16,054 bases of DNA from Candidatus Sericytochromatia bacterium (GTDB lineage Bacteria; Cyanobacteriota; Sericytochromatia; S15B-MN24; UBA4093): assembly GCA_036676495.1 (NCBI GenBank), contig JAKFCT010000009.1, positions 1-16,054 of the forward strand, given 5' to 3'. Both the position numbers and the translations under genes were made by a program. Of the stretch, positions 1,321-15,817 are shown one piece after another (the first letter of the stretch is position 1; each line of letters opens with the position of its first letter). The notes below the pieces were generated by a model that saw nothing but the letters and a program-made list of their open reading frames with translations, did not search any database and was not told where the DNA came from.

Positions 1321-1388
1321 TATTGGCCGGATCGGGCCCGATAACCCTCCCAGCAGTGGACATGAAAACGATTGCAGGGAGGACTTAC

Positions 1389-1877: not shown

Positions 1878-1880
1878 TCA

Positions 1881-1936: not shown

Positions 1937-3070
1937 CTATTCGCCGAAGACGGCCTTGATCGGGTCCACCGCCCCGTGACCGAAGCGGATGTCCTTTCCG
2001 GGCTTCCCCAGGTCCTGGGCGGTCTCGGCCAAGTGGTCGCGAATCTGGGCGGGGGTCCAGTCGGGGTGACGGGCAATGATCTGGGCGACGACGCCCGCCA
2101 CGTACGGAGCGGCCATCGAGGTGCCGGACATCTCGTCGACCTTGCCCTTCTTGACGGCGGAGACGATGTCCGTCCCCGGAGCGGCGAGATCCACGGCGGG
2201 CCCGATGCTCGAGTTGGAGCTGAGCTTCAGGCCCTCCTCCGGGGAGGTGTCGTCGAGGTTGGAGACGGCGAGGACCGTCGGATGGGTCGCGGGGAAGTTG
2301 ACGTTGTCCTTGTCCTTTTCCCCGTTTCGGTTGTTGCCCGCGGCGACCACGACCACGACGCCCTTCGCCTCGGCGTAGTCCAGGGCCTCCTCGAGGTTGC
2401 GAATGCCCTTGGCGTGGAGGCTGCCCAGGATCCAGTTGTTCGTCTGGGTGCCCATGCTGATGTTGATGACCTTGGCGCCGTTGTCGACCGCGTGGCGGAC
2501 CGAATCGGCGACGCGCGTGAACAAGCCCGAGTTGTAGATGGTCGACGTGCCGAACTTGATCGGCAACAAGGTCGCCCCCGGGGCCACGCCGTGAACGCCC
2601 TCTTCGGGCAGGGAGCCCGCGATGATGCCCGCCACGTGGGTGCCGTGGCTGAAGAACGCGTCGACGTCGTCCGTCTTGGACTTGCCGTTGTAACCCGGCA
2701 GGATCTCGCTCTTGCTGAAGGCTGGATGGGTCACGTCCATGCCCGAGTCGATGACGGCCACCGTGACCTTGCTCAGGTCGACCTCGGTGAAGCCGTCGTC
2801 GGTGTGAAGGACCTCGGCCTGCTTTCCGTCCACCTTGAGCGAGTCCCCCTTGCTGATGGCCTCATCGGCGGACTGGTGGGCAATCTTGCTCTCGGTGCGG
2901 TAGGCCCCGCTCAGCAAGAGGAGATCATTGCCCTGCTTTGCCAGGATGCTGGGCTTACCATCCTTGGAGGCTTCTTGGCGTAGCCGATCCCGGTTCTGCG
3001 CGGTATCCGGCAGCCGGATGTCGTGCGGGCCCGTCTTCAGCGACGGAGTCGGGCGAATCGAGTTGGACAT
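1937..3070 (-). CDS. S8 family subtilisin-like serine protease (377 aa), no Sec signal peptide
   Basis: Catalytic triad motifs VAVIDSG, HGTHVAG and GTSMAAP, plus oxyanion AAGN. Start MSNSIRPT at 3070 follows a GGAGG RBS. The track extension to 3679 overlaps the next gene. Confidence 0.93.
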   Translation of the reverse strand: MSNSIRPTPSLKTGPHDIRLPDTAQNRDRLRQEASKDGKPSILAKQGNDLLLLSGAYRTESKIAHQSADEAISKGDSLKVDGKQAEVLHTDDGFTEVDLSKVTVAVIDSGMDVTHPAFSKSEILPGYNGKSKTDDVDAFFSHGTHVAGIIAGSLPEEGVHGVAPGATLLPIKFGTSTIYNSGLFTRVADSVRHAVDNGAKVINISMGTQTNNWILGSLHAKGIRNLEEALDYAEAKGVVVVVAAGNNRNGEKDKDNVNFPATHPTVLAVSNLDDTSPEEGLKLSSNSSIGPAVDLAAPGTDIVSAVKKGKVDEMSGTSMAAPYVAGVVAQIIARHPDWTPAQIRDHLAETAQDLGKPGKDIRFGHGAVDPIKAVFGE

Positions 3071-3225
3071 GGGGACCTCCAAGCATCTAGCGGGCGGGCT
3101 CCCCTGCTCAAGAGGGGGGTCACCGCTCGTGCTCGTTGAAGCGGGCGACGAAAGGAACGTGGCGGGGCCGCCGTCGTGGCAAGCGGGCCTTCTTGAGGTT
3201 ATACCCAGAAATTGGCGACTTCCGG

Positions 3226-4095
3226 TCAGTAGCCTGCGCGCTGGAAGAGGTACCGGGCGAGCATCATGGCCTCGCCCCCCTGGGTCACCATCCCGGTCTG
3301 GGCGTTGACCAGCATCACCGGTTCTCCCTGGGTTTGACTCGGCATATCGGCGAAGACCCACAGAGGGCCGTAGGTCTTGATGTCCAGGAGGACGGCGGCG
3401 CCGTACTTGTTGGGGACGTAGCCCATGCGCTTGGCGATCGCATGCGCTTCCTTCACGTCGACGGCATGGCGATCGCGCGCCTCGTTGAGCACCAGGGTGG
3501 CCTGGTCGAAGCCGTCGGCGGGCTCTTCGAAGGACTTCGAGAAAAGCGACGACAGGGTGAACTCGACCTTGAGGGCCTTCCCCTTGGAGGGCGAGTAATA
3601 GGCATGGCGCGTGACGCTCAGGGCGGGAAGCTTCCAGTAGGCCCAGATCGCGTAGAGCTGGCGCGCATCCGAGGCCCATTCCCGAGCGATCCGATCGGCC
3701 TTTTCCTGGGAGTTGCGGGGAACGACCTGGACCTGGTAGGAGCTGGCTTCGAGCTGGCTGGCCATGGCCGGCAGGTCGTTGACGATGCCGCCTTGGCGGG
3801 CGATCGCCCCGGCCAGCTCCAGCAAGGTCGGCTCAGCGGGAGGCGCCGGAAGGACCGGGCTCTCGGGACGCGAGACGGGGGGATGCGTCATCGGCAGGGC
3901 TGAGGCCGGCACCGCCGGGGCTGGCAGGACCGGCGATTGCCAGGTCGCGCGGGAGGGCTGGGAGGTGAAGGGAGCCGCGCTCGGGACGAGGGTGGAGCGG
4001 TTGCATCCGGCGAGCAGCAATATCGCCGGCAAGCAGGAAGCGAGCAGCAAGCCCGAGAGCAGGGGCGCGGCGTGGCCGTTCGATGCGAGGCGCAT
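3226..4095 (-). CDS. Uncharacterised lipoprotein with Pro-rich N-terminal linker (289 aa)
   Basis: Hydrophobic N-terminus ending LLLAG-C, then a P/S/A-rich tether and a globular C-terminal part with GC3-biased codons. The GGAGGG RBS (4102-4107) fits ATG 4095 better than ATG 4101. Confidence 0.75.
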   Translation of the reverse strand: MRLASNGHAAPLLSGLLLASCLPAILLLAGCNRSTLVPSAAPFTSQPSRATWQSPVLPAPAVPASALPMTHPPVSRPESPVLPAPPAEPTLLELAGAIARQGGIVNDLPAMASQLEASSYQVQVVPRNSQEKADRIAREWASDARQLYAIWAYWKLPALSVTRHAYYSPSKGKALKVEFTLSSLFSKSFEEPADGFDQATLVLNEARDRHAVDVKEAHAIAKRMGYVPNKYGAAVLLDIKTYGPLWVFADMPSQTQGEPVMLVNAQTGMVTQGGEAMMLARYLFQRAGY

Positions 4096-4115
4096 GGGCA
4101 TCCCTCCAAAGGGGT

Positions 4116-4134
4116 CTTAAACCAGCCTTAACCT
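4116..4134 (+). promoter_or_regulatory. Pho-box-like tandem CTTAAACC-agc-CTTAACCT overlapping the predicted TSS of the lipoprotein gene
   Basis: Two 8-mers 11 bp apart. The second equals the cyanobacterial SphR/PhoB consensus CTTAACCT. Confidence 0.45.
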
Positions 4135-4138
4135 CCAT

Positions 4139-4167
4139 AGCATAGCGGTCTGCCCCTCGCATGTCAA
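4139..4167 (-). promoter_or_regulatory. Sigma70-type promoter for the 4095 lipoprotein gene
   Basis: Minus strand TTGACA (4167-4162), 17 nt spacer, TATGCT (4144-4139). Confidence 0.75.
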
Positions 4168-4168
4168 A

Positions 4169-4195
4169 CCCCCGGGGCCGATCCGGCCCCGGGGG
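4169..4195 (-). terminator. Intrinsic terminator after the lipoprotein subtilase
   Basis: Perfect 12-bp stem CCCCCGGGGCCG / CGGCCCCGGGGG with a 3-nt loop, followed on the minus strand by TTT. Confidence 0.7.
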
Positions 4196-4215
4196 GTGCG
4201 AGTTGGGTTGCGACG

Positions 4216-5718
4216 TTACCAGAAGCGGACGGTGTTGCGCCAGCCTTGTCCGGGATGTTCCTTGGTGGCGGAGACGGCCTTGAAGGCGTTGACCCGGCCT
4301 TCGCCGAAGTACGCGTCAAATCCGGCGCTTCCCAGGTCGTCGGCGGTCTCGTAGAGGGTCTCGACGACTTGCTTGGGCTGGGCGCGGAAGTGGCCGCGCT
4401 TCGAGATGACCAGGGCGGCGACCCCGGCGACGTGCGGAGCGGCCATGGAGGTGCCGGCCAGCGTGAAGTAGGGAGCCGGCTGGAAGGGCATGCCGTCGAC
4501 GGTCTGCTTCACGGCCTTGGTGCTCCAGGTGCTGTAGATGAAGCCCGCGGAGCTCATCTGGCCGTTCTTGATGATCACGCCGCCGCCCGGCGCCGAGAGA
4601 TCCACCAGCCGCTTGCCGTAGTTGCTGTAGAAGCTGGCGAACGAGTCGTAGTCAGTGCCCGTGGCGGGACCGGTGGCAGAGACGCCGATGTTGTGATCGA
4701 GCATGGCCGGCAGGAGGAAATCCGTGGTGCTGTCGAAGTTCCGCATGCTGTTGCCCGCCGAGCTCACGACCACGGCTCCGCGCCGGAAGGCGAAGCGGAC
4801 GGCGCGTCCCATCTTGCGGTTGAGCTCTTCACCGCGGGGGTTGCCCACGGCGAACGTGCCGCCGAAGCTCATGTTGATGACGTCGGCTCCGTTCATCGAG
4901 GCGTAGTAGATGCCCTTGATGACGGTGTCGAAGTTGGAGACGCCCTTGTAGTTGTTGACCTTGAGCGCGAGGATCTTCGCGTGGGGGGCGACGCCCGTGA
5001 CGCCCTTGCCGTCCGCCTTGGCGGCGATGATGCCGGCCACGTGGCTGCCATGGCCGCGCAAGTCCATGACGTCGAAGTTATCGGCGTTGGGGCCGTCTCC
5101 CTCGATGAACGAGCGTGAGGCCGGGTGGAGCTGGCCTGCGAATTCGGGGTTGGTGTAGTCGATGCCCGAATCGAGCACCGCCACCGTGACGCCCTGGCCC
5201 GTGGCGCCCTGGTTCCAGGCCTCGGGAGCCTGGATGGTCCGGAGGCCCCACTGCTGGGCACCGTAGGTAATCGCGCTTCCCGCCTGAGCATCGTCCATGC
5301 CGTCGGCCGGGGCGGCGAAGGTGAGGTCGTCCTGGGACCAGTCGACCTCGTAATCCTCGATCACGCTCGCCACTCCGGAAATCTTGCCAGCTTTGGAGAG
5401 GAAGTTCGGATCGGACGAGAGCACGGTGGCGAGGCCCGCGCCGTCGAAACGCGTCGAGAGCTTGCCGCCGGCCTTGGTGAGGTCTTTTTCGAAGTTGCCG
5501 GGAATCTCGTCTCCCGAGAACTCGACCAGGTACTGGGTCGCACCGCCGACCGTGGCCACCTTCCACTCCGCGGGAGCCTTGGCGGCCGTCGCGGCGAGGT
5601 GGCTGGGGGCGACGGTGGCCGGCGCGAGCGTGCTCGAGGGGACCGTTTGGCAGCCTGCCAGCAGCGTGAGGCCCAGGGTATAGGCGATCGAACGTTTGAC
5701 GTGACGGCTAACTTGCAT
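4216..5718 (-). CDS. Lipoprotein S8 subtilisin-like serine protease with I9-like propeptide (500 aa)
   Basis: Lipobox LLAG-C; QYLVEF...VIEDYEV propeptide-like region; triad VAVLDSG, HGSHVAG and GTSMAAPHVAG; GAGGAG RBS. Confidence 0.93.
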   Translation of the reverse strand: MQVSRHVKRSIAYTLGLTLLAGCQTVPSSTLAPATVAPSHLAATAAKAPAEWKVATVGGATQYLVEFSGDEIPGNFEKDLTKAGGKLSTRFDGAGLATVLSSDPNFLSKAGKISGVASVIEDYEVDWSQDDLTFAAPADGMDDAQAGSAITYGAQQWGLRTIQAPEAWNQGATGQGVTVAVLDSGIDYTNPEFAGQLHPASRSFIEGDGPNADNFDVMDLRGHGSHVAGIIAAKADGKGVTGVAPHAKILALKVNNYKGVSNFDTVIKGIYYASMNGADVINMSFGGTFAVGNPRGEELNRKMGRAVRFAFRRGAVVVSSAGNSMRNFDSTTDFLLPAMLDHNIGVSATGPATGTDYDSFASFYSNYGKRLVDLSAPGGGVIIKNGQMSSAGFIYSTWSTKAVKQTVDGMPFQPAPYFTLAGTSMAAPHVAGVAALVISKRGHFRAQPKQVVETLYETADDLGSAGFDAYFGEGRVNAFKAVSATKEHPGQGWRNTVRFW

Positions 5719-5788
5719 GAACGCTCTCCTCGGTTTAATGGAGTAGAAGGGAGTCCTAGGCCCCCTTCACGGAGGGCTCACCTCCCGC

Positions 5789-5818
5789 ACTATACCTCGG
5801 GACGAGGCCCTAGAAACC
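5789..5818 (-). promoter_or_regulatory. Candidate promoter of the lipoprotein subtilase
   Basis: Minus strand -10 TATAGT (5794-5789). It can also be read as GGTTTCT-N14-AGGTAT, a degenerate SigB/SigF-type site. Confidence 0.4.
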
Positions 5819-5820
5819 GC

Positions 5821-5857
5821 AAAAACAGAGGGTTGACGAAGTTTTAACGGAACCCTC
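5821..5857 (-). terminator. Possible terminator after the M50 peptidase gene
   Basis: GAGGGTT...AACCCTC inverted repeat (5828-5857) followed on the minus strand by TGTTTTT. The 16-nt loop weakens the call. Confidence 0.4.
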
Positions 5858-5888
5858 GCTCGCTGCAACAACGGAGTAACAATTCCGT

Positions 5889-7328
5889 TCAGGAGAGGCC
5901 GGTGGTCCGCAGGATGAAATGCGCGAAGCGCCAGGTCACGAGGCCGGCGATCGCCACGGTATACGTGCCGCCGAGGATGCCGTACCAGAGGAAGGCGCGG
6001 CGCTCCCGCCGCTCACCGATCATGGGCAGTCCGCGGACGCGGCGGTCCAGCATGTCGAAGGCGCGGGGGCGGAGGTTGGGGATTTCCAGCCAATCGGCCA
6101 GGATGTAGTACCCGTCGAACTTGAGCAATGGGTTGATGTTGGTGACGGTCGAGACCAGGGTGATCGCCACGATCTGGGCCAGCACCAACTCCACGGCGTT
6201 TGGGAGCTCCAGCCATGCCCACGCGAGCCCCGCGACGGAGGCCAGCATGAGCTGGAAGTAGATCCCCGCGGCGCTCACGGCGATGCGCTTCCATTTCTCC
6301 GGGAAGCGGTGGGCATCGCTCACATCGCAGAAGGCCATGGGGATGAAGACGTAGATCATGATTCCCATGCGCCGGACCTGACCTCCGAAGGCCCGACAAG
6401 CCATCGCATGGCCGTACTCGTGAATCGTCGTGCAGAGCAGCATGGCGATCAGGAAGCTGCCGATCCCTCCCACCCAGCGATGGTCGAAGTTCCGGAGGAT
6501 CAGCTCCACCAAGGTGCCGGCCTGCATGGAGAGCGCGATCGCCGCCACGGCGATCAGGATGCCGCCACCCATGAAGCCCGCGCGGGAGAAGAGCGCTTGC
6601 CCCAGGGGAGCGGTCAGGTCGAGCAGGCGGCTGGGATCGTGAAAAGGAAAGCGAATCTGCATCCAGCGGGCCCAGCCGGCGCGGGGCGCCAGGGAAACGG
6701 CGGGGGGCACGGGCTCCGGGGCTGGCGCGGTCGCCGGATCCGCTCCGGTCGCGTTCTCGGGAGCCGCGGGGGGATCCATGGAAAGGAGACCGAGCATCCA
6801 GAGCCGGGTGGTCAAGGCGAGCAGTTGCTCGGGCCAGACGAGCTGTCCGGTCGATTCCCAGCAGCGCCGGACGATGCTACTGAACGTTTTTTCGCTGACG
6901 AGGCCCTCCGCGAGCTGGTACTCCTCGGGGCTCAACTGGACGTGGCGATCGCCGATGGAAAGGACGACGGCTTGCCGATGGGTCTCGTTGATGGGCGTCG
7001 CCGTGAGGCCCTCCTTCCAGCGGAAGGATCCGAGATGTTTCCATAAGGGCGAGGATAAGACGGCCTGGGCACTGAGCGCCTGAGAGATCTGCTCGGGGGT
7101 ACAGACTCCGTGAGCAACCAGGATTTCCCCCAGGAGGCGGGGGTGCGCTTGCTGTTCTTCAAGTGCGCGCTCCACGTCCTCCGCGCGGGCCAGGCCGAGT
7201 TCCGTGAGCATTTCGCCGAGACGCCGCGTCCGGGGCTCGAAGCGCAGCAGCTCCTCCACCAGTTCGGGGGGGGCGTCGGGACTCTCCTCCATGGAGGAGG
7301 TCGGAAATTGGGAGGAGGAGTGGTCCAT
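5889..7328 (-). CDS. M50 (site-2) membrane zinc metallopeptidase with N-terminal MshEN c-di-GMP-binding module and PqqD/RRE-like domain (about 479 aa)
   Basis: HEYGH and NINPLLKFDG zinc motifs within TM helices. Two tandem 24-aa MshEN motifs at 7223-7065. A strands-then-helices segment ending LWMLGLL at about 7025-6783. Start is uncertain (see finding at 7328-7362). Confidence 0.88.
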   Translation of the reverse strand: MDHSSSQFPTSSMEESPDAPPELVEELLRFEPRTRRLGEMLTELGLARAEDVERALEEQQAHPRLLGEILVAHGVCTPEQISQALSAQAVLSSPLWKHLGSFRWKEGLTATPINETHRQAVVLSIGDRHVQLSPEEYQLAEGLVSEKTFSSIVRRCWESTGQLVWPEQLLALTTRLWMLGLLSMDPPAAPENATGADPATAPAPEPVPPAVSLAPRAGWARWMQIRFPFHDPSRLLDLTAPLGQALFSRAGFMGGGILIAVAAIALSMQAGTLVELILRNFDHRWVGGIGSFLIAMLLCTTIHEYGHAMACRAFGGQVRRMGIMIYVFIPMAFCDVSDAHRFPEKWKRIAVSAAGIYFQLMLASVAGLAWAWLELPNAVELVLAQIVAITLVSTVTNINPLLKFDGYYILADWLEIPNLRPRAFDMLDRRVRGLPMIGERRERRAFLWYGILGGTYTVAIAGLVTWRFAHFILRTTGLS

Positions 7329-7501
7329 GGTGGTGCGTTCAATCCTGCATGCGTGACTCCTTGCCCAACATACCCGACGGAGCGGCTCTCTACCCGGAAT
7401 TACGCCCGTTATGGGGAGGTCGTGAAGATTGCACGATTGTTGCATCACTTTTAAACAACCGTAGGATGCGTTTCAAATGTTGATTATTACTGGCTTTTAG
7501 C

Positions 7502-7527
7502 GGTTTAGCCGGTTGTGAAGAGGGTAC
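7502..7527 (+). promoter_or_regulatory. SigB/SigF-type promoter upstream of the precursor peptide
   Basis: GGTTTAG-N13-GGGTAC, close to the B. subtilis SigB consensus GTTTAA-N12-14-GGGWAW and to the actinobacterial SigF consensus. Confidence 0.6.
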
Positions 7528-7581
7528 AAGAAGTGTGACGGATGTTACACGCACCCCGCAATGCTGGAAGGAGACCACGGT

Positions 7582-7809
7582 ATGAACAACAAGATGGTAA
7601 TCGACTTCGTGAACCGCCTGGCCGTTGATGAGTCTCTCCGTGAGAAGCTGGAAACCGATTTCGAAGGCACGCTCACCGAGCATGCGGTTGCGGTGACTCC
7701 GCGCGAGTTGGCCTCCCTGAAGGCGAGCTGGCGCTTCATCAAGGATGTCAACCCGATGGAGCTCGAGGCTCGCTTCGTGGCGGACGGTGACGGCGGAGAC
7801 CACTGCTAG
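7582..7809 (+). CDS. Putative RiPP precursor peptide (75 aa), NHLP/Nif11-clan-like leader, C-terminal core FVADGDGGDHC
   Basis: AAGGAG RBS (7568-7573). The helical leader IDFVNRLAVDESLREKL resembles NHLP/Nif11 leaders. An ELEAR motif precedes a short D/G-rich tail ending in Cys. It is followed by a hairpin and a radical SAM gene. Confidence 0.8.
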   Translation: MNNKMVIDFVNRLAVDESLREKLETDFEGTLTEHAVAVTPRELASLKASWRFIKDVNPMELEARFVADGDGGDHC

Positions 7810-7830
7810 TTCTGCTGGTTTACTGCATGG

Positions 7831-7863
7831 GGGGGGCAGGCGCAAGCCCTGCCCCCCTTTTCT
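7831..7863 (+). terminator. Intrinsic terminator/attenuator between precursor and radical SAM gene
   Basis: 10-bp stem GGGGGGCAGG / CCTGCCCCCC, C-GCAA-G loop, followed by TTTTCT. Confidence 0.75.
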
Positions 7864-7883
7864 ATTTCGAGGACGGAGGACGC

Positions 7884-8918
7884 ATGTCGCCAGGTAATGA
7901 GGACCGCCCGGATGTCTTTCATCTCCAACTCTCGGTGACCAACGCCTGCAATCTTCAGTGCGTGCACTGCTACCGTGACGAGAGCAAGGCCTTCCGCGAC
8001 GAGCTCTCCGTGGAAGAGATGATCGCACTCTTCGAGCAATTCAAGGCCTTCCTCGATAAGCGAGGCATGGAGGGGCTCATCACCTTCGGCGGCGGAGAGC
8101 CGCTGCTGCGCCGCGATCTCGGTTTGCTCGCGCGAGTCGCCCACTCGATCGGCCTGGCGGTCCGGATCATCACCAACGGGGTGCTCTCGGCACGGCAAGC
8201 CGAGCATCTGGCCGAATGGGGCATCCGCCTGGTCCAGGTCAGCTTCGACGGAGCGACCGCCGAGGTGCATGATCGGGTGCGGGGCGCGGGCATGTTCGAT
8301 AAGGCCCTGGAAGGCTGCCGACACCTCCTGGCGGCCGGCATCCACGTCAACCACAAGGTGACGCTGCTAAAGGGCTTCAACGACCACCAGATCCCCGAAT
8401 TCTTCGCCCTGGCCAACCGCGAGCGGATTCCCTTGCTCTCCTTCGGCCACCTCATCCCGATCGGCTCGGGGGCTCAACTCAACCGGCTCACGCCCGAGGA
8501 GCATCGGGCGATCTACGACCGCATCGCTGCGGAGGGAGCCCGCTCGGAGTTCACGCGCTTCGAGTTCCGGGAGCCGGGCTTCGACCGCTCCATGGCCTGG
8601 GGACGCCACCGCCCTTACCGGTCGAGCGAAGGAGTGAGCCATCTGGCCATCGACGCCGACGGTACGGTCTTCACGAGCCGCCGGATGGGGATGAAGATCG
8701 GCAACATTCGCGGCTCCTCCTTGGAGGAAATCTGGCAGCACCCCTTGCTGGTCACGCTGCGCGAAGGCAAGATCGAGGGCAAGTGCGCCAGCTGTGAGCT
8801 CTTCTCGGTCTGCGAAGGAGGGTCGCGCGCGGCGGCTTACGCCCTGACGGGGAACCCCATGGCCTCGGATCCCGATTGCTGGTATTCGCCTCAGGCCTCC
8901 CTGGTGACCACCGCATGA
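7884..8918 (+). CDS. Radical SAM/SPASM-domain protein (344 aa), putative peptide maturase
   Basis: CNLQCVHC (CxxxCxxC), GGGEPLLR, ITNG and VSFDG core motifs. C-terminal CASCELFSVC...DPDCW. GGAGGA RBS before ATG 7884. Confidence 0.93.
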   Translation: MSPGNEDRPDVFHLQLSVTNACNLQCVHCYRDESKAFRDELSVEEMIALFEQFKAFLDKRGMEGLITFGGGEPLLRRDLGLLARVAHSIGLAVRIITNGVLSARQAEHLAEWGIRLVQVSFDGATAEVHDRVRGAGMFDKALEGCRHLLAAGIHVNHKVTLLKGFNDHQIPEFFALANRERIPLLSFGHLIPIGSGAQLNRLTPEEHRAIYDRIAAEGARSEFTRFEFREPGFDRSMAWGRHRPYRSSEGVSHLAIDADGTVFTSRRMGMKIGNIRGSSLEEIWQHPLLVTLREGKIEGKCASCELFSVCEGGSRAAAYALTGNPMASDPDCWYSPQASLVTTA

Positions 8919-10072
8919 GCGGGAGGGCGCTCGGCATCGACCTTGGCAACGCCAAGGTCAAGTTCGTGGCCTTGAACGAGGCTTCAGGCGGCCCCGAGGC
9001 GCTCTGGGGTGGTGGGACCATCCCTTACACCCCGAAGCGCCTTCCCGATCGCCGGCATGACTTCGACGAAGGCCTTCCGGCCGCCCTGGCGCGCTTCATG
9101 ATCACCCATGCCTTCACTCCCGAGGATTTCGAGCGGGTGGTCGTCTCGACCAGCCACTTCTTCTCGTATCCTTCCTTCGAGGCGGCTCACCTCCATACGA
9201 TGGAGCTGCTGGAGCGGATCTTCCCGGCCTCCGCCTTGAGGTTTCTGGGTGCCGAGGGGCGCCTCTACACGCTTGCGGAGGCCCGGGCCCTGACGGGATC
9301 TCAGGTCGTGCGCTTCGCCGCCACCAAGTTCTGGGGCTCGGCCTACCTGGCCTCAAAGCTCATCCCGCACGGGCTCTCCATCGACACCGGCACGACCTCG
9401 ACCGATCTCATTCCCGTCGTGGACGGGAAGCCGGATCCGCTGGCGGCAGGGGACCCCGATCGCTACAACCTCGACCGTCTCAAGACGGAGCGCTTCATCT
9501 GGTACGGGATGACGGCCACTCCCCTGGATTACCTCGCCCATGAGGCGGAGGCGGCGGGCGAGATCTGGCCGCTCTATCCGCGCGTGGCCAAGACGGAGGT
9601 GCTGACGGCGATCTTGGGGCTGGCCCCGCGCGAGCTGACCGAGGCCCATGCCTACGGAGGCCAGTTCCCGAGCGTCGAGGAGGCGCGCTTCCAGCTCGCT
9701 CAGGCCTGTGGGCTCGATGTTCACCTGATGGGTGAGAAGACCCTCACGGAGATTGCCCGGGATCTGACGCGGCGCATGGTCGAGCGGATCGCGGCGTCTG
9801 TCCGCAAGGTCGCGGGCCATGCGGGTCTGGGGCCGCTCGAAAACGCTTATGGCGCGGTCATGGGTCTCGGGCGCGAGTCCGTGGCGCGAGAGGCGCTCTT
9901 GCAGGCAGGTTTCCGCGCCGAGCATCTGGTCGACGTCGAAGCGGTGCTGGGCGCAGGGCTATCGAGCGTGTCGACCGCCTACGGCGCAGCCCTCAGAGGG
10001 CTCGAGGATCTTCTCGGGAAAAGGCTCGAGATCCGGAGCGAGCACGCGGCAGGCGCTACGCGCTCGTCTTGA
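8915..10072 (+). CDS. MfnF-like / hydantoinase-oxoprolinase (ASKHA-fold) family protein (385 aa)
   Basis: ASKHA phosphate loops LGIDLGNAKVK and SIDTGTTSTDLIPV, and DRLKTERFIWYGMTATPL, resemble MfnF and H4MPT-linked C1-transfer proteins (GxDIGGANxK, DxGSTTTDIIP, DxxRL...VYxGxxRTP). ATGA overlap with the radical SAM stop. Confidence 0.75.
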   Translation: MSGRALGIDLGNAKVKFVALNEASGGPEALWGGGTIPYTPKRLPDRRHDFDEGLPAALARFMITHAFTPEDFERVVVSTSHFFSYPSFEAAHLHTMELLERIFPASALRFLGAEGRLYTLAEARALTGSQVVRFAATKFWGSAYLASKLIPHGLSIDTGTTSTDLIPVVDGKPDPLAAGDPDRYNLDRLKTERFIWYGMTATPLDYLAHEAEAAGEIWPLYPRVAKTEVLTAILGLAPRELTEAHAYGGQFPSVEEARFQLAQACGLDVHLMGEKTLTEIARDLTRRMVERIAASVRKVAGHAGLGPLENAYGAVMGLGRESVAREALLQAGFRAEHLVDVEAVLGAGLSSVSTAYGAALRGLEDLLGKRLEIRSEHAAGATRSS

Positions 10073-12479
10073 GCGTGACCAGGGTGATGTCGTCGAACGG
10101 CGGACCATCTCCCGTGAAGTCGTGGATCTCGCCGAGCAGGCGCTGCTGGATCTCGTCCGGGGAAAGGTCGAGGTTCTGGGAGACGATCTGCTCCACGCGC
10201 TCCTCACCGAACTGCTCCCGCTCGGAGTTCATGGCGTCCTCGGCTCCATCCGAGTAGAGGACCAGCATGTCGCCGGGATTCAGGGTGAGGGTCTGCTCCT
10301 CGTAGGTCATCTTGGCCAGCACGCCCAGCGAGACCCCCTTGGCCTCGAGCCTGCCCACGGAGCCAACCGGGAACGGGTTTCCGGCATTGGCGACGCAGAG
10401 ACTCTGGTCGCGAGAGTCGTAGATGGCGTAGAGGGCGGTGACGAACATCTTGCTCGACGGGCGGTTGAGGTAGATGAGTTCGTTGGCCTTGGCCATGACC
10501 GCTGCGGCCGACTCGTTGCCGCGCGCGATGGAGCGGAAGATGACCAGGGTCATGGCCATGAGGAGCGCGGCGGGGACCCCCTTGCCCGAGACGTCTCCGA
10601 TCAGGATGCCCAGGCGATGGGGGTCGACTCGGATGATGTCGTAGAAGTCTCCTCCGACTTCCAGGGCGGGCTTCGAGAGGGCGGCCAGCTCGATGCCGGG
10701 CAGGGTGGGAATCTTGGAGGGCAGGAGGCCCGCCTGGACTTCGGCGGCGATTTCCAGCTCGCGCTTGAGGCGCTCCTGGCCCGCCACCTGGCCGATGAGC
10801 TGGGTATTCTTGAGCCAAACCGAGAGCTGCTGGGCGAGGTTGACCAAGAGGAGCCGGTCGATCTCCTTGTAGTCGAGGTCCGACTTGCGCGGGCCGATGA
10901 GGACGCACCCGATGAGATCGTCCTTGTCGAGCAGGGGCACGACGAGCGCGTGCTTCATGGGGCCGAAGTCGTCAGGCTCGGAGGCGATGCCCTTTCCGGA
11001 GCGGCCGACCAAGGCCAGCCTCGGATCGATCACGGAAAGGGCGAGTTTCGTCCCCGGCTCGAGTCCGAGGGATTCCTTGAGGTGAAGGTCCTCCGTGCCC
11101 TCCTGGCGCAGCAGGATGGCGAGGCTGTCCGGGTAGAGCGCATGTTCGACTTGCTTGATGAAGGCGCAGAGCAGTTGCCGGGAGTCGAGGGTTTCGCGGG
11201 CCTCGTCCCCGAACTCGGTGACGATCTTCTGGAAGTCGTAGCCGGTCCGGAAGAAGAGGCGGTCGACGAGGCTCTTGGTGCGATCGCGCATGGGGGAGAA
11301 GGCGATGGCGACGACCGCCGTGGCGATGATGTTGGCGGCTCCCGATTGCTCGCCGATGAGCATGCGCACGCCGCCGATCAGCAGGAAGTAGAGGCCCAAG
11401 AGCGAGGACGTGACGATGGCGTAGGTAATCGTCCGCTTGATGATGACGTCGATGTTGAAGAGTTTATGGCGGACGATGGTGTAGGCGACCGCGAGCGGGA
11501 AGAGCGTGATGGCCAGGTAGGCGAGTTCGGCGCCCGGGAACGAGAGGCCGAAGAAGAAGCCGATGTTGATGCCGATGGCCGGGATGAACGCGGCGGTGGC
11601 CCCCCAGAGGATGACCTTCGCTTGCGCGCGCTGGATCGCGGTGCTGGTTCGACTGAGCAAGCTCCAAGTGGCCGCCGCGGGCAGGCTCACGGTGCCCAGC
11701 GACCCGTAGGCGGTCAGCAGGAGGTAGGTCGAGAACCAGCGCTCGGAGGCGAAGTAACTGCCGAGGACGAAGAGGGTGACCCCGATTCCGAGCGCGAAGC
11801 TGGCCCCGCGGATCCATGGGTATCGATCGAGCAGGGGGGCCCGCCGCGGCAGCTGCAGGGCCAGGTCGATGGCGAAGGTCCCCAGGAGGCAGAAGGCCGC
11901 GGTGTGGGGAATCAGGGAGAAGTAGTAGGTGGTGGACGCCTCGAAGTGGCTGAGGAAGAAGAGGGCGAAGACCGAGCAGAAGAGCAGGTAGGCACGCGCG
12001 ACCGGGTCTCGCGGCTTGACGATCGCGACGAACGCGCCGATGGCGATGTGGAAGACCCCCATCAGCCAGAAGGAGCCGAAGATGCCGGCCCAGTCCCAGA
12101 AGGTGAATTTCTGGGTGGGGACGACCTTGGTCATGCGGATAGGCTCGTCAGAGCCGTTGGCCCGTTCGATGCCGTAGGTGATGGAGCTGCCCACCGGCTT
12201 GGCGGCCGCGTACCGGTAGATCATCTCGCTGGAGGTCACGGGCATGCCGTCCACGGAGACGACCCGATCGGCCGCCTGCATGCCTTCTTGAATCCCGTTC
12301 CATCGCGGGGAGTACAGCGAATCGAGGCAGTGGTTCTGGAGGATGACGAAGCCCGGGAACGTGCGATTGATCCAGGCCGCCGAGAGCACGAGACAGATCG
12401 CACTGAAGACGATCAAGAGGGTCATCGACGTCCAGAAGGCGGTTTTTTCGAGTTTCCGGGGTAACGTTATGGCGTTCAT
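10056..12479 (-). CDS. Membrane sensor PP2C/SpoIIE (RsbU-like) phosphatase: N-terminal TM, PDZ-like domain, multiple TM helices, GAF-like domain, PP2C
   Basis: PP2C motifs VGGDFYD, IGDVSGKG, LYSDG and FDDIT. PDZ-like GMQAADRVVSVDGMPV. Many hydrophobic helices. GAF-like LVVPL...LIG...LGPRKS. Start is ATG 12479 or GTG 12482. Confidence 0.9.
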   Translation of the reverse strand: MNAITLPRKLEKTAFWTSMTLLIVFSAICLVLSAAWINRTFPGFVILQNHCLDSLYSPRWNGIQEGMQAADRVVSVDGMPVTSSEMIYRYAAAKPVGSSITYGIERANGSDEPIRMTKVVPTQKFTFWDWAGIFGSFWLMGVFHIAIGAFVAIVKPRDPVARAYLLFCSVFALFFLSHFEASTTYYFSLIPHTAAFCLLGTFAIDLALQLPRRAPLLDRYPWIRGASFALGIGVTLFVLGSYFASERWFSTYLLLTAYGSLGTVSLPAAATWSLLSRTSTAIQRAQAKVILWGATAAFIPAIGINIGFFFGLSFPGAELAYLAITLFPLAVAYTIVRHKLFNIDVIIKRTITYAIVTSSLLGLYFLLIGGVRMLIGEQSGAANIIATAVVAIAFSPMRDRTKSLVDRLFFRTGYDFQKIVTEFGDEARETLDSRQLLCAFIKQVEHALYPDSLAILLRQEGTEDLHLKESLGLEPGTKLALSVIDPRLALVGRSGKGIASEPDDFGPMKHALVVPLLDKDDLIGCVLIGPRKSDLDYKEIDRLLLVNLAQQLSVWLKNTQLIGQVAGQERLKRELEIAAEVQAGLLPSKIPTLPGIELAALSKPALEVGGDFYDIIRVDPHRLGILIGDVSGKGVPAALLMAMTLVIFRSIARGNESAAAVMAKANELIYLNRPSSKMFVTALYAIYDSRDQSLCVANAGNPFPVGSVGRLEAKGVSLGVLAKMTYEEQTLTLNPGDMLVLYSDGAEDAMNSEREQFGEERVEQIVSQNLDLSPDEIQQRLLGEIHDFTGDGPPFDDITLVTLKTSA

Positions 12480-12488
12480 CACGGACGG

Positions 12489-13556
12489 TTATACCCAGTC
12501 GTTGGCGGCATGACTCATTTGTGCGGTCAAAAGGGCTCCCAAGGCCAGGGCCGTCGTGACCTCACGGCTCTGATAGGCGCTTTTTCCGAGGGTGAAGTAC
12601 AGCGGTTCGGCTTGCCAGGCGCCGTCTGCTTCCTGGCGGTCAGCGAGCCAGTCCGCGGCGAGCCGGATTGCGTCCCGGCTCTCCGGCGGTGCCCAGTCAC
12701 CACCGGCAGCCAGGGCCTCGAGGCAGAAGGCGGTTTCCAGGACGGAGGGGCGCAAGGCCGCATCCTGGTACTTGGGGACGGGCGAGCGATCGGGGATCCA
12801 GTAGCCTTCGTGGGTTTGGCGCTGGAGGAGGGTTTCGAGCGCCTCCCGGACCGCGGGGCGCGCTTCGGCCGCGAGTTCCGGCTGCCGCGCGGCCACGGCG
12901 CGCAAGGCGCGGGTCCCTTGCAAGGTGCCGTATCCCCAGCCCCAGTACCAATGCGCCGCCCAGCCTTCGGGTTGCTTCTTGCGGATGAGCCAGCGGGCTC
13001 CGTTTGCGAGCCGCTCGGCAAATCGCTCGGGAGCGTAGTTCGCCAGGGCAGCCAGGAGGTTCGCCAGCACTTCCGGGTGGCAGAGGTCGTCGCCACCCGC
13101 CCAGTTGAGGCGCGCCGCATGCGCCTCGTCAGGGTGCTCAACCAGCCAGGTGTTGCAACTGCCGTCGGGGTGGAAGTTCGTTTCCAGGAAAGCGAGCGGC
13201 CCTTCCAGGATCGCGTCGCGATCCGGCCAGCTCAAGCGGGTGAGCAAGTGGATGACATGCGCGAGGTCGTCGGCATCGGGAGGTATGTCCGGGTAGAGAT
13301 TGAAGTAGCGCCATCCCTGCGGCTCGCCCAGGTCGGCGATGTTCGCGGCCTCGCGTTGGGCAAGCCGCCATGCGGTGTCGGACTGCAACTCCGGGCGCGC
13401 AAGCGTGAGCGCGATGAACGCCATGGGGAAGACCGTGCCGATGAGCAGAGGAACTCCCCGATAGCCCGCCTGGACTTCCCAAGCACCGCGGAAGCTCGAG
13501 TTGCTGGCCTCCACCATGTAACTCAGTGCCTGGGCGACCGCATCGGTTTGCTTCAA
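12489..13556 (-). CDS. Prenyltransferase/squalene-oxidase-repeat (alpha/alpha)6 barrel protein with DxDD motif; single-domain class II terpene-cyclase-like (355 aa)
   Basis: GWRYF...YPDIPPDADD (DADD at 13277-13266); QW-type repeats KQPEGW, RQTHEGYW and RQEADGAW. GAGGAG RBS 10 nt before the in-frame TTG 13556. Confidence 0.72.
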   Translation of the reverse strand: MKQTDAVAQALSYMVEASNSSFRGAWEVQAGYRGVPLLIGTVFPMAFIALTLARPELQSDTAWRLAQREAANIADLGEPQGWRYFNLYPDIPPDADDLAHVIHLLTRLSWPDRDAILEGPLAFLETNFHPDGSCNTWLVEHPDEAHAARLNWAGGDDLCHPEVLANLLAALANYAPERFAERLANGARWLIRKKQPEGWAAHWYWGWGYGTLQGTRALRAVAARQPELAAEARPAVREALETLLQRQTHEGYWIPDRSPVPKYQDAALRPSVLETAFCLEALAAGGDWAPPESRDAIRLAADWLADRQEADGAWQAEPLYFTLGKSAYQSREVTTALALGALLTAQMSHAANDWV

Positions 13557-13575
13557 GGGGTGACATCTCCTCAGC

Positions 13576-13606
13576 AAAAAGGGGAGGGCCTTACGCCCTC
13601 CCCTTT
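13576..13606 (-). terminator. Intrinsic terminator after accA
   Basis: Minus strand GGGGAGGGC-GTAAG-GCCCTCCCC followed by TTTTT. Confidence 0.85.
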
Positions 13607-13608
13607 AT

Positions 13609-13634
13609 TTACCCGAGAGACTGGATTATCAACC
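13609..13634 (-). promoter_or_regulatory. SigB/SigF-type promoter for the cyclase-like/PP2C operon
   Basis: Minus strand GGTTGAT-N13-GGGTAA, with the same geometry as the 7502-7527 site. Confidence 0.5.
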
Positions 13635-13642
13635 CTTTCGGG

Positions 13643-14620
13643 CTAGTACTCCTCGGCGTACCGACCGATCTGCCGGTACTTTCCGTAGCGGTCCGAAACC
13701 AGCTGGAAGCCCGGAACCTTCGTGAGCTCGTCGAGCTGGATGCCGAGGGCCTCCTTGAGGTTCTGGGCAGCGGCCACGGGGTCGCGGTGCGCTCCCCCGA
13801 TGGGCTCGGGAACGATGCTGTCGACGACTCCGAAGCCGATCAGGTCTTCTCCGGTGAGCTTGAGGATCTGGGCGGCCTGCGGGGCCTTGGAGGCGTCCTT
13901 CCAGAGGATGGCGGCGCAACCCTCGGGACCGATGACGGCGTAGTAGGAGTGCTCGAACATGAGCACGCGATCGGCGACGCCGATGCCGAGCGCTCCGCCG
14001 GAGGCTCCTTCCCCGATGACGACGGAGACGATGGGCACTTCGAACTGGCTCATTTCGAGCATGTTCTGGGCGATCGCCCCCCCTTGTCCCCGCTCTTCGG
14101 CCTGAATGCCGGGATAGGCTCCCGGGGTGTCGATCAGGGTGATGATCGGGAAGCCGAACTTGGCGGCATGCTTCATCAGGCGCAGGGCCTTGCGGTAGCC
14201 CTCGGGATGGGCCATCCCGAAGTTCCGCATGATGTTGTCCTTGGTGTCGCGTCCCTTCTGGTGGGCGATCACCATGACGGTCCGGCCGTTGAAGCGGGCG
14301 AGACCGCCCACGATGGCCCGATCGTCGAAGCCCATGCGATCCCCGTGCAGCTCGGTGAATTCCTCGGTGATGGCGAGGATGTAGTCGAGCGCGGAGGGGC
14401 GCGCCGGGTGGCGGGCGATCTGGATCCGCTGGATGGGGGTGAGGTTCTCGTAGATGGCGCGGCGGATGTTGAGGGCGCGCTCCTCGAGCAGGCTGATCTC
14501 CTGAGTGAGGTCGCCGTCGGACTCCGTGGCGAGTTGCTTGAACTCTTCGATCTTCTCCTCGAGCTCCAGGATGGGGGCCTCGAAGTCGAGCGCGAAGCGG
14601 CGGGATTCCTTGATCTTCAT
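13643..14620 (-). CDS. accA: Acetyl-CoA carboxylase carboxyltransferase alpha subunit
   Basis: LDFEAPI, ARHPARP, ELHGDR, RNFGMAHPEGYRKALR, IDTPGAYPG and GEGASGGALGI motifs. Confidence 0.98.
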   Translation of the reverse strand: MKIKESRRFALDFEAPILELEEKIEEFKQLATESDGDLTQEISLLEERALNIRRAIYENLTPIQRIQIARHPARPSALDYILAITEEFTELHGDRMGFDDRAIVGGLARFNGRTVMVIAHQKGRDTKDNIMRNFGMAHPEGYRKALRLMKHAAKFGFPIITLIDTPGAYPGIQAEERGQGGAIAQNMLEMSQFEVPIVSVVIGEGASGGALGIGVADRVLMFEHSYYAVIGPEGCAAILWKDASKAPQAAQILKLTGEDLIGFGVVDSIVPEPIGGAHRDPVAAAQNLKEALGIQLDELTKVPGFQLVSDRYGKYRQIGRYAEEY

Positions 14621-14621
14621 G

Positions 14622-15506
14622 TTAGCCTCCGGTGACCCGCGCGGGGGCGGGGGCCGTGTGCATGGCGAGGAGCTGGGAGAGCATGTCGCGCAGCTTGGGA
14701 CGCGGGACGATCATGTCGATCAAGCCGTGCCGCAGGAGGCTTTCGGCGGTCTGGAAATCGGCGGGAGTCTTCTGGCGAATGGTGGCCTCGATGACCCGCT
14801 TGCCGGCAAACCCGATGATGGCGCTCGGCTCGGCGATGATGATGTCCCCCAGCGTCGCGAAGGAGGCCGTGACCCCGCCGGTGGTGGGATCCGTGAGCAC
14901 GGTGATGTAAAGCCCCCCGGCCTTGCCGAAGCGCGCCAAGGCCGCGCTGGTCTTGGCCATCTGCATCAGGGAGAGGGTGCCTTCCTGCATGCGGGCTCCG
15001 CCCGAGGCGGCCACCACGATCAGGGGCTGGCGCGCTTCGAGCGCATGCTCGATGGTCCGGGTGAGCTTCTCTCCCACGACCGAACCCATCGACCCGCCCA
15101 TGAAGTAGAAGTTCATGACGGCCAGCGAGATCGCTTGACCCTCGAGGGTCGCGGTCCCGGTGATGAGGGCGTCGCCCGGCCCGCGAGCCGCCGTGGCCTC
15201 CCGCAGGCGCTGGGGATAAGGCTTGCTGTCGACGAATCCCAGGGGATCGACCGAAAGCAATTCGACGTTGGTCTCCCGGAACGAGCCAGGATCGACCAGT
15301 TGCGCGATCCGCTCGCGCGCCTCCACCCGGAAGTGGTAGCCGCACTTGGGGCAGACGTTGAGATTGTGAATGAGTTCCTTGGTGTAAAGCGGCTCGTGGC
15401 AATCCGTGCACTTCGTCCAGAGGCCGTCGGCGACCTCTCGCTTCTCGCGCTCCGTATCGACCAGGGTTGCCTTCTTGCGGGCGGCGAACCAATCCCGTAA
15501 CGACAT
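14622..15506 (-). CDS. accD: Acetyl-CoA carboxylase carboxyltransferase beta subunit (294 aa)
   Basis: GLWTKCTDC...VCPKC zinc finger, MGGSMGSVVGEK, SGGARMQEG and PTTGGVTASFA. Start MSLRDWF at 15506 after AGAGG. Confidence 0.98.
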   Translation of the reverse strand: MSLRDWFAARKKATLVDTEREKREVADGLWTKCTDCHEPLYTKELIHNLNVCPKCGYHFRVEARERIAQLVDPGSFRETNVELLSVDPLGFVDSKPYPQRLREATAARGPGDALITGTATLEGQAISLAVMNFYFMGGSMGSVVGEKLTRTIEHALEARQPLIVVAASGGARMQEGTLSLMQMAKTSAALARFGKAGGLYITVLTDPTTGGVTASFATLGDIIIAEPSAIIGFAGKRVIEATIRQKTPADFQTAESLLRHGLIDMIVPRPKLRDMLSQLLAMHTAPAPARVTGG

Positions 15507-15602
15507 TTTATATCCTCTGTATTCAGCTTCGGCAGTCAGCCCACACGGGCGTTTCAAGGGCTCCGGCCGCAGTCGGGGACCGCGCCGGGGCGCCAACGTT
15601 TC

Positions 15603-15631
15603 ATTATACGGGGGCCTTGGGGCCTTGTCTA
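15603..15631 (-). promoter_or_regulatory. Sigma70-type promoter of accD-accA
   Basis: Minus strand TAGACA (15631-15626), 17 nt spacer, TATAAT (15608-15603). Confidence 0.75.
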
Positions 15632-15692
15632 ACGGCGCCGCCGCGTGACGTGCCCCCCGCCAAGCAGAGGGAGTGCCCCGTCAGCCGGTAAG

Positions 15693-15722
15693 CTTAAAGC
15701 AGCCTTTATGCCGGCTTTACCG
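15693..15722 (+). promoter_or_regulatory. Three 11-bp-phased CTT(A/T)A repeats
   Basis: CTTAAAGC (15693), CTTTATGC (15704) and CTTTACCG (15715) upstream of the 15818 ORF. Confidence 0.4.
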
Positions 15723-15817
15723 ATTTTCGCCGCCACATCGCGATAACCTTCCTGACCTCTCTTGAGCGGCCCCGGGTCGAGGCGCCGTCAGGAAACGACC
15801 TCAGAAAGGGATGAGCA

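Follow-up and report, generated by a model that had tools for sequence, protein, structure and literature searches.

A rare MfnF-like ASKHA protein family encoded next to a radical SAM enzyme and a Cys-terminal precursor-like peptide in Candidatus Sericytochromatia

The stretch of DNA analyzed here (hereafter, the window) consists of positions 1 to 16,054 of the forward strand of contig JAKFCT010000009.1, that is, 16,054 nucleotides (nt) from the genome assembly GCA_036676495.1 of a Candidatus Sericytochromatia bacterium. The window is GC-rich (59–68%) and encompasses a gene, at 8915..10072, for a protein of the ASKHA superfamily that is located immediately downstream of the genes for a small, precursor-like peptide and a radical SAM enzyme. 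An earlier reading of this DNA, made from the letters alone (hereafter, the sequence-only reading), likened the ASKHA protein to MfnF, an enzyme of methanofuran biosynthesis, and proposed that it represents a new type of tailoring enzyme for peptides that ribosomes make and that are modified after translation (RiPPs). As described below, the ASKHA protein belongs to a new, rare sister family of MfnF that is found in a new, RiPP-like context. The central features of the locus are the following (aa, amino acids).

7582..7809, forward strand: precursor-like peptide, 75 aa; its helical body is NHLP-like and is followed by a short Gly/Asp spacer of variable sequence and a C-terminal Cys
7829..7869, forward strand: terminator-like GC hairpin and T-run between the precursor gene and the radical SAM gene, likely an attenuator
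7884..8918, forward strand: radical SAM/SPASM-type enzyme, 344 aa (Pfam Radical_SAM, 99 bits; SPASM, 32 bits)
8915..10072, forward strand: MfnF-like ASKHA-fold protein, 385 aa, divergent from and sister to the MfnF/TIGR03123 branch within the Hydantoinase_A superfamily

The ASKHA gene starts with the ATG at 8915–8917 and ends with the stop codon at 10070–10072. The TGA stop codon of the radical SAM gene (8916–8918) shares three bases with the beginning of the ASKHA gene at this ATG (ccgcATGAgc), in agreement with the ATGA overlap that had been noticed in the sequence-only reading. The encoded protein contains a phosphate-1 loop (DLGNAKVK, residues 9–16), a phosphate-2 loop (DTGTTSTD, residues 157–164) and a GxG adenosine-type motif (residues 317–319), all three of which are conserved in the family. 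In the alignment of the window protein with 28 close homologs, D157, G159, T160, S162, T163 and D164 are invariant, and D9, G11, N12, K14 and K16 are at least 90% conserved. Altogether, this alignment contains more than 70 invariant residues, many of them polar and located in the pocket, and no invariant Cys. The AlphaFold2 model that was built on the same alignment (A1) is of high confidence (predicted local distance difference test score, pLDDT, 92.0; predicted template modeling score, pTM, 0.90). The two-lobed fold, together with the phosphate-1 (DxGxxxxK), phosphate-2 (DxGTTxTD) and GxG motifs, places the protein in the ASKHA superfamily.

The scores of the window protein on the relevant family models are all below the respective cut-offs: 84 bits on NCBIfam TIGR03123 (cut-off 244.1), 41.3 bits (E 1e-10) on the MfnF equivalog model NF040623 (cut-off 520), and 19.9 bits, in a local match of 26 residues, on Pfam Hydantoinase_A (PF01968; gathering threshold 22.9). 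The latter threshold is passed by the ortholog from L004, one of the related loci described below (29.1 bits), and precomputed PF01968 assignments were found for 10 of the 28 homologs. When the profile of the window protein and its 28 close homologs was compared, using hhalign, with the profile of 16 true TIGR03123 proteins (alignment A4), the match had a probability of 100 and E 5.6e-43, with 24% identity over 349 columns. A Foldseek search with the AlphaFold2 model returned the six chains of 3cet/3c0b (Q6M145, a structural-genomics protein from a methanogen) as the top PDB matches, with E 1e-20 to 2e-18, template modeling (TM) scores of 0.67–0.70 (normalized by the query) and 0.80–0.85 (by the target), and 18–19% identity. 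The next matches, namely, acetone carboxylase beta, MK0840, PilM, HgdC-type activators and ROK kinases, were much weaker (E 6e-8 and above), and all the leading matches were ASKHA proteins. In a PDB sequence search, 3c0b was the sole match (E 2.5e-5), and look-ups in the ESM Atlas with the window protein and with a more distant relative, P0031, retrieved only generic Hydantoinase_A clusters. By profile comparison and by fold alike, the ASKHA protein is a full-length homolog of the MfnF/TIGR03123 branch, and the likeness to MfnF that had been read from the letters is thereby borne out by HHpred- and Foldseek-type comparisons.

This likeness does not extend to membership in the MfnF family. An exhaustive profile search of 1.84 billion representatives yielded 720 matches at E<=1e-3, 143 at E<=1e-10 and 30 at E<=1e-30, and 66 of the best 150 matches were scanned against NCBIfam. 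Among the scanned proteins, 31 score at least 111 bits on the profile of the ASKHA family and reach at most 132 bits on TIGR03123, and 24 are at or above the TIGR03123 cut-off, none of these scoring more than 100 bits on the profile of the ASKHA protein; the cut-off of archaeal MfnF (NF040623) is reached by none of the 66. In a phylogenetic tree of 73 rows (the window protein, 6 of the 28 close homologs and the 66 scanned proteins), the window protein falls inside a 37-row clade (SH-aLRT support 96), apart from the rows that pass TIGR03123, and all 24 of the latter lie on one side of a single branch (support 94). The joining of the ASKHA clade with the true TIGR03123 rows is rejected by the approximately unbiased (AU) test (difference in log likelihood 195.5, p-AU 9e-118), with the caveat that the choice of the group followed inspection of the tree.

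Comparison of the alignment columns among the window protein's own clade, its sister clade and TIGR03123 delineates both what is shared and what has changed. G7, K16, D157, G159, T163, R188, G198, T202, D268, G317 and G319 are common to all three clades, and for D9 and G11, conservation is limited to the protein's own clade and TIGR03123, being less than 70% in the sister clade. Twelve positions that are 92–100% conserved in TIGR03123 are occupied by other residues in the ASKHA clade, each at least 96% conserved in the protein's own clade: G12N, N14K, E80S, L81H, N138K, W139F, E193R, Y196W, R201A, E223R, T246A and R263Q (the TIGR03123 residue is given first, and the assignments depend on the alignment). 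These pocket replacements include two charge reversals, E193R and E223R, and the clade additionally has a specific 5-residue insertion at 181–185; N12, S80, W196 and R223 are common to the wider 37-row clade. The sequence-only reading described the two phosphate loops as present but diverged. Both are indeed present, but only the first one has truly diverged from TIGR03123, with N12 and K14 in place of G (100%) and N (96%), whereas the second loop follows the same pattern in the ASKHA clade and in TIGR03123. The ASKHA protein hence combines an MfnF fold and intact phosphate loops with a rebuilt substrate pocket.

Protein fusions and gene neighborhoods differ as well. Five of the 24 true TIGR03123 proteins (P0093, P0095, P0139, P0146 and P0167; 539–595 aa) are fused to an MfnE-like kinase, which fits the consecutive MfnE and MfnF steps of the pathway; no such fusion was detected in the ASKHA clade among the best 150 matches. 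A tblastn search of plasmids for true TIGR03123 genes gave four matches, and the surroundings of two of these were examined. In Azospirillum oryzae, the gene is located among mtd, mch, fae and ATP-grasp genes, and in Cupriavidus oxalaticus, it (324 bits on TIGR03123) adjoins genes for an MfnD-like ligase and formylmethanofuran dehydrogenase subunits; the same kind of search with the sister-clade proteins P0031, P0038 and P0047 produced no match. By contrast, none of the 17 open reading frames (ORFs) of the window (11 of which were scanned against Pfam and NCBIfam, and 6 against Pfam only) matched a methanofuran or tetrahydromethanopterin (H4MPT) family, as the sequence-only reading had stated, and no H4MPT or methanofuran genes were found in the flanks (up to 10 kb on each side) of loci L001 and L004. 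Given the separate clade, the scores below the cut-offs, the replaced pocket residues and the lack of H4MPT neighbors, the ASKHA protein is MfnF-like but is not MfnF, and membership in the true MfnF/TIGR03123 family was rejected. Grouping with true MfnF in a methanofuran context was the outcome that the sequence-only reading had named as speaking against its proposal; the AU test rejects that grouping and there is no H4MPT cluster at the locus.

The ASKHA family is rare, with only 28 homolog clusters (48–92% identity) retrieved in a word-seeded search of 5.8 billion clusters. A scan of genomes, one per species (177 pattern matches, 5 confirmed stretches), identified four related loci, L001 to L004, in three metagenome-assembled genomes (MAGs) labeled Candidatus Sericytochromatia and one (L002) labeled Stenomitos. 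The ASKHA proteins of these loci are 52–80% identical to the window protein, L004 being the most distant (52%). In all five loci (the window and L001 to L004), a small precursor-like ORF is followed by the radical SAM gene and then by the ASKHA gene. The junction between the latter two is an ATGA overlap in the window and in L003 and a 1-nt overlap (TAATG) in L001; in L002 and L004, the two genes are separated by 4 nt. A link to radical SAM and precursor genes, which the sequence-only reading had left to be checked, is observed in these five loci, beyond what chance would give, and the trio persists down to 52% identity. In L004, the proteins of the block are conserved at 33–53% identity, but the flanks are different, with genes for a tetratricopeptide repeat protein and STAS and SpoU genes versus rpmI-rplT-rmlC and accA-accD in the window, and the gene for an alpha/alpha-barrel protein is inverted. 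Because the block is conserved while its flanks and the orientation of the barrel gene change, it appears to be a functional unit and not merely a case of frozen synteny. The partner families are similarly rare: the precursor family comprises 17 clusters, and the radical SAM family comprises 11 clusters at 45% identity or more, after which identity drops to 36%. The longest contigs of the ASKHA and radical SAM clusters have equal sizes in four cases (14363, 232422, 9277 and 14630), and those of the ASKHA and precursor clusters in one (4521), which is a weak sign that these gene families lie on the same contigs.

Two carriers are labeled as photosynthetic cyanobacteria, namely, the Stenomitos sp. 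MAG with L002 and a Pantanalinema sp. MAG with P0023, and every other named carrier is a Candidatus Sericytochromatia. The contig of L002, which is 4955 bp long and has a very high GC content at third positions, may have been mis-binned.

The body of the precursor-like peptide is highly conserved. In an alignment of 19 rows (the 17 clusters, including the window's own, and the copies from L002 and L004), the last residue is Cys in all 19, the penultimate residue is D in 13, S in 3, E in 2 and H in 1, and, apart from that residue, only a spacer of 0–5 Gly, Asp or Ser residues varies; nine of the 19 peptides end in ...RFVADDC. The window peptide scores 26.4 bits on NF038399 (Os1348 NHLP clan; cut-off 40), and 18 of the 19 members match this model at E<=0.01. 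In the AlphaFold2 model, five helices are predicted (pLDDT 67) and the tail, residues 69–75, is disordered; a Foldseek search with this low-confidence model gave nothing significant (best E 1.8), the top matches being Os1348, the SonA borosin precursor and a proteusin precursor. The candidate function of a Ser/Thr kinase acting in dehydration was rejected, given that the precursor tail contains no conserved Ser or Thr. The stem of the hairpin downstream of the precursor gene (7829–7859) comprises 12 pairs, 9 of them GC, and a T-rich tail comes after it; the fold z-score of the hairpin is only -1.75, and an Rfam scan of the window matched no family. Similar GC hairpins are located 3' of the precursor gene in L001, L003 and L004. 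Terminator-like hairpins downstream of precursor genes commonly serve to raise precursor expression above that of the enzymes, and the hairpin with its T-run is likely to be such an attenuator.

The radical SAM gene most likely starts at the ATG at 7884, which is preceded by GGAGGA, and not at the ATG at 7827, which lies at the foot of the hairpin, given that the hairpin with its T-run occupies 7829–7869. The nearest NCBIfam families of the encoded protein, all matched below the cut-offs, are TIGR04053, AhbC, NirJ1, AhbD, NirJ and MftC, and its nearest relative with a solved structure is the decarboxylase BlsE (7vob, E 7.6e-17). Many of these named relatives remove or rework carboxylates. The protein has seven invariant Cys residues, C22, C26 and C29 (CX3CX2C) and C301, C304, C310 and C332, but, of the seven Cys that make up the usual SPASM pattern, it lacks the first two, such that it probably holds one auxiliary cluster. 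An N-terminal extension that could serve as a recognition domain is absent, with the cluster motif starting already at residue 22, and Pfam and NCBIfam scans detected no PqqD-like gene in the block.

Beyond the trio, the block includes the following genes, all on the reverse strand.

1937..3679, reverse strand: second S8 peptidase (Pfam Peptidase_S8, 192 bits; domain at residues 304–569)
3226..4101, reverse strand: conserved lipoprotein, 291 aa, 33% identical to L004:3149-3967 (E 9e-45)
4216..5718, reverse strand: subtilisin-like S8 peptidase (Pfam Peptidase_S8, 179 bits), with a lipoprotein-type N-terminus, LLAGC, read from the translation
5889..7448, reverse strand: divergently transcribed intramembrane HExxH metalloprotease, M50-like and daptide-protease-like, with an N-terminal MshEN-type domain that binds cyclic di-GMP (c-di-GMP)
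10056..12482, reverse strand: membrane PP2C/SpoIIE phosphatase with a GAF-like region (Pfam SpoIIE, 155 bits), convergent with the ASKHA gene, with a 17-nt overlap at the 3' end of the latter
12489..13577, reverse strand: single alpha/alpha-barrel related to domain 1 of squalene-hopene cyclase (Pfam SQHop_cyclase_C, 56 bits), with the DxDD-like motif PDIPPDADDLA

The HExxH protease scores 191 bits over 353 residues on the daptide protease model (NF041824 daptide_HExxH; cut-off 300) and 36 bits on Pfam Peptidase_M50, and its MshEN domain is above the cut-off (NF053729, 56.5 bits; cut-off 38). An ortholog that is 34% identical and aligns over the MshEN region as well is present in L004, and another one in L001. 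The MshEN domain suggests that peptide processing is under c-di-GMP control. S8 genes occupy the same place as 4216..5718 in L001 and L004, and L004 also encodes two S8 peptidases; because the S8 domain of the second window peptidase covers residues 304–569, the true start of this gene is probably internal. The lipoprotein at 3226..4101 had no Pfam or NCBIfam match. The extracytoplasmic S8 lipoproteins together with the intramembrane protease suggest that the product is exported or associated with the membrane.

The barrel protein is similar to residues 369–599 of PDB 1gsz (E 4e-9). Its YPDIPPDADDLA stretch is identical in the L004 ortholog (14417–15568, forward strand), which is 39% identical overall; we take YPDIPPDADDLA to resemble the DxDD acid motif of class II terpene cyclases. 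This motif points to an acid catalyst of the class II cyclase type; the role of donor supplier that the sequence-only reading had considered for the barrel protein finds no support. The barrel gene adjoins the block in L001, L003 and L004 and is flipped in L004. An ORF of the same size is found at the position of the SpoIIE phosphatase in L001 to L004, and Pfam SpoIIE was confirmed in L001 and L004. The phosphatase may stand outside the pathway; a STAS-domain gene near it in L004 suggests an unrelated, partner-switching role.

On both sides, the block is bounded by housekeeping genes, rpmI, rplT and rmlC on the left (3–647 and 712–1284, forward strand) and accA and accD on the right (13643–15596, reverse strand), which helps to place its limits at about 1937–13577. 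The accA/accD side is common to the window, L001 and L003, and is lacking in L004.

Conserved co-location with a precursor gene and maturation enzymes, as expected of a RiPP tailoring enzyme, is observed for the ASKHA gene in all five loci, and the description of this protein as a new type of RiPP tailoring enzyme, as proposed in the sequence-only reading, is the best available reading of the coupled trio. On the whole, the proposal of that reading is a sound, partly supported lead; the two reactions that it suggested, transfer of a diphosphate-activated group or phosphorylation that leads to cyclization, are hypotheses. The ASKHA protein is probably a dedicated partner that acts on the Cys-terminal peptide. 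As for the reaction, the relevant precedent is MfnF (Orf9), which, according to PMC8141765, is thought to join F1-PP to a glutamyl-tyrosine or tyramine dipeptide. The acceptor gamma-glutamyl-tyramine is a dipeptide whose C-terminal residue is decarboxylated; its phenol is joined with furfuryl diphosphate by MfnF, which is a transferase with a diphosphate leaving group and not an ATPase (PMC8141765). If the ASKHA protein is indeed a dedicated partner of the peptide, MfnF-type transfer would be slightly favored over ATP-type activation, for three reasons: MfnF is by far the closest characterized relative; the MfnF acceptor has a decarboxylated C-terminal residue, and the decarboxylase-like radical SAM enzyme could make an acceptor of the same kind; and a prenyl moiety as the transferred group would provide the DxDD barrel with a substrate. 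Overall, we estimate at roughly 0.4 the probability that a divergent sister of MfnF/TIGR03123 has been recruited in Candidatus Sericytochromatia as the dedicated tailoring enzyme of a small RiPP-like pathway, where it would catalyze an MfnF-style transfer.

Under this proposal, the radical SAM enzyme, which belongs to a branch rich in decarboxylases (AhbD, NirJ, MftC and BlsE), might activate the C-terminal Cys by oxidative decarboxylation or in another way. A diphosphate-activated donor (R-CH2-OPP) would be held by the conserved phosphate loops of the ASKHA enzyme, which would transfer the donor group to the Cys sulfur, the DxDD barrel might then act on the transferred group, and processing of the product would fall to the intramembrane HExxH protease and the S8 lipoprotein proteases. 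In its most specific and, in our estimate, improbable version, the ASKHA protein would be a peptide alkyltransferase that attaches a diphosphate-activated group, preferably a prenyl chain, to the sulfur of the (possibly decarboxylated) C-terminal Cys, with the chain cyclized by the DxDD barrel; the product, matured by the intramembrane metalloprotease, would be a hybrid of a ribosomal peptide and a terpenoid or a small protein with a lipid anchor at its C-terminus.

Several considerations weigh against the proposal of MfnF-style tailoring. Scans of the window, L001 and L004 revealed no donor-making gene (MfnE-like kinase or prenyl diphosphate synthase) in the block, and a site for ATP cannot be told from a site for a diphosphate donor by sequence. 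The NHLP match of the precursor is below the curated cut-off (26.4 versus 40 bits), and the "core" that follows the conserved body consists of only two residues (DC) in nine of the 19 peptides, which is unusual for a RiPP. The labels of the carriers, three Sericytochromatia and one Stenomitos, imply that shared ancestry could explain a part of the synteny, and the genomic evidence of coupling does not extend to the other 29 rows of the 37-row clade.

Enzymes of the hydantoinase/oxoprolinase type activate amides with ATP, and the ASKHA protein might likewise phosphorylate a group adjacent to the Cys, either a backbone amide or the C-terminal carboxyl, such that the thiol cyclizes to a thiazoline independently of YcaO and the radical SAM enzyme decarboxylates or oxidizes the product, yielding, for example, a C-terminal thiazole. 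Such ATP activation is consistent with the Hydantoinase_A superfamily membership (29.1 bits for the L004 ortholog; PF01968 on 10 of 28 homologs) and with the Foldseek matches that follow 3cet/3c0b, among which acetone carboxylase beta (5svc_B, 5m45_B) and acetophenone carboxylase (5l9w_b) are interleaved with MK0840 (4bgb), PilM (5eou) and HgdC (1hux). It also agrees with the intact phosphate-1, phosphate-2 and GxG motifs, with a peptide tail that is invariant only in its backbone and thiol, the penultimate residue being D, S, E or H, and with the decarboxylases being the nearest relatives of the radical SAM enzyme. Nevertheless, we consider this mechanism doubtful: MfnF, the closest relative that has been characterized, works as a transferase with a diphosphate leaving group, not as an ATPase (PMC8141765), the window protein stays below the Pfam cut-off (19.9 versus 22.9 bits), Pfam and NCBIfam scans found no HyuB/OplB-type partner subunit in the block, and no sequence feature marks an ATP site. 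Less probable still is that the ASKHA protein is a small-molecule enzyme loosely tied to the peptide, which would make or consume a phosphorylated metabolite (for example, a co-substrate for another enzyme of the block) or perform a housekeeping function, the gene order being inherited within a narrow lineage. As far as is known, the characterized relatives, MfnF among them (PMC8141765), all act on small molecules, and three of the four loci from the genome collection are labeled Candidatus Sericytochromatia. Yet the coupling to the radical SAM gene, by overlap or a 4-nt spacer, persists in all five loci down to 52% identity, whereas the flanks, and even the orientation of the barrel gene, have changed over the same divergence, and the ASKHA family parallels the radical SAM enzyme and the precursor in rarity and distribution, all of which makes this explanation unlikely.

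It is highly unlikely, in our assessment, that the ASKHA protein is a non-catalytic or ATP-driven partner of the radical SAM enzyme, that is, a leader-binding scaffold in place of the missing RiPP recognition element or an activator of the HgdC/BcrAD type. The lack of an N-terminal recognition extension in the radical SAM protein and of a separate PqqD-like gene in the block would leave room for a scaffold, and HgdC-type activators and RACo are among the distant Foldseek matches; however, these activator matches are far weaker than the MfnF-like ones (E 1e-7 versus 1e-20), and the more than 70 invariant residues, many of them polar and in the pocket, argue for catalysis. There is, moreover, no invariant Cys to hold an Fe-S cluster, and on that ground an Fe-S activator of the "archerase" type was rejected. 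A true MfnF/Orf9 that functions in methanofuran or methylofuran biosynthesis would account for the same fold, the full-length homology and the fact that this is the best-scoring named family, but has next to no chance of being the correct explanation in view of the scores (84 versus 244.1 and 41.3 versus 520 bits), the separate clade and the AU test that rejects the union, the twelve replacements at 92–100% conserved positions, and the absence of any H4MPT or methanofuran gene in the window and the L001 and L004 flanks, as opposed to the two examined true TIGR03123 genes, both of which reside in such clusters.

In the literature that we searched, no ASKHA, MfnF-like or Hydantoinase_A-superfamily enzyme was found to be described as a peptide tailoring or RiPP enzyme, and nothing on the present system was retrieved. 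If the ASKHA protein acts on the Cys-terminal peptide, it would bring a new enzyme fold to ribosomal peptide chemistry, either as an alkyltransferase with a diphosphate leaving group or as a YcaO-independent, ATP-dependent activator, and would provide the first functional handle on the uncharacterized sister clade of MfnF, which encompasses about 30 representative clusters at 50% identity. Should the prenyl-transfer version hold, this would be the first ASKHA-fold peptide alkyltransferase, and the non-photosynthetic relatives of cyanobacteria would possess a new class of RiPPs. With three genes and the proteases, the system is compact, and it comes from an uncultured, poorly known class of bacteria, and the hypothesis is directly testable.

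Among the known systems, the A subunits of hydantoinase and 5-oxoprolinase and the corresponding ATP-binding subunits of acetone and acetophenone carboxylases share with the ASKHA protein the superfamily, the ASKHA fold and the phosphate loops, and offer ATP-dependent carbonyl activation as a possible mechanism. The ASKHA protein differs from this group in its size, 385 aa versus about 650–710 aa, and in having no B-subunit partner in the block.

The daptide pathway is connected to the locus through the window HExxH protease, which matches the daptide protease model (191 bits over 353 residues), albeit below the cut-off of 300, and daptide chemistry, too, centers on the C-terminus of the precursor. 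The window protease differs in having the additional MshEN c-di-GMP-binding domain, and the daptide tailoring enzymes were not found at the locus; conversely, we know of no daptide cluster with an ASKHA or radical SAM enzyme.

Mycofactocin biosynthesis (MftA, MftC) resembles the window block in its small, highly conserved precursor that is modified only at the extreme C-terminus, as is proposed for the window peptide, and in the peptidases that are encoded alongside. MftC decarboxylates the C-terminal residue, and the window radical SAM/SPASM enzyme matches the MftC model over the whole length with 136 bits, below the cut-off of 265. The differences are that the window block lacks an MftB-like recognition protein, that its peptide ends in Cys versus Val-Tyr in mycofactocin, and that its radical SAM enzyme has only one set of auxiliary-cluster Cys; to our knowledge, an ASKHA enzyme is not a part of the mycofactocin pathway.

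The system closest to the ASKHA protein itself is MfnF/Orf9. The ASKHA protein differs in lacking a fused or neighboring MfnE-like kinase (5 of the 24 true members are fused) and an H4MPT context, and in the 12 replacements, with the two E-to-R reversals, and the 5-residue insertion at 181–185. The likeness encompasses full-length homology, the fold, the phosphate-1 and phosphate-2 loops, GxG, R188, G198, T202 and D268, and it might extend to the acceptors, both of which would be peptide-like, with a nucleophilic side chain at the C-terminal end.

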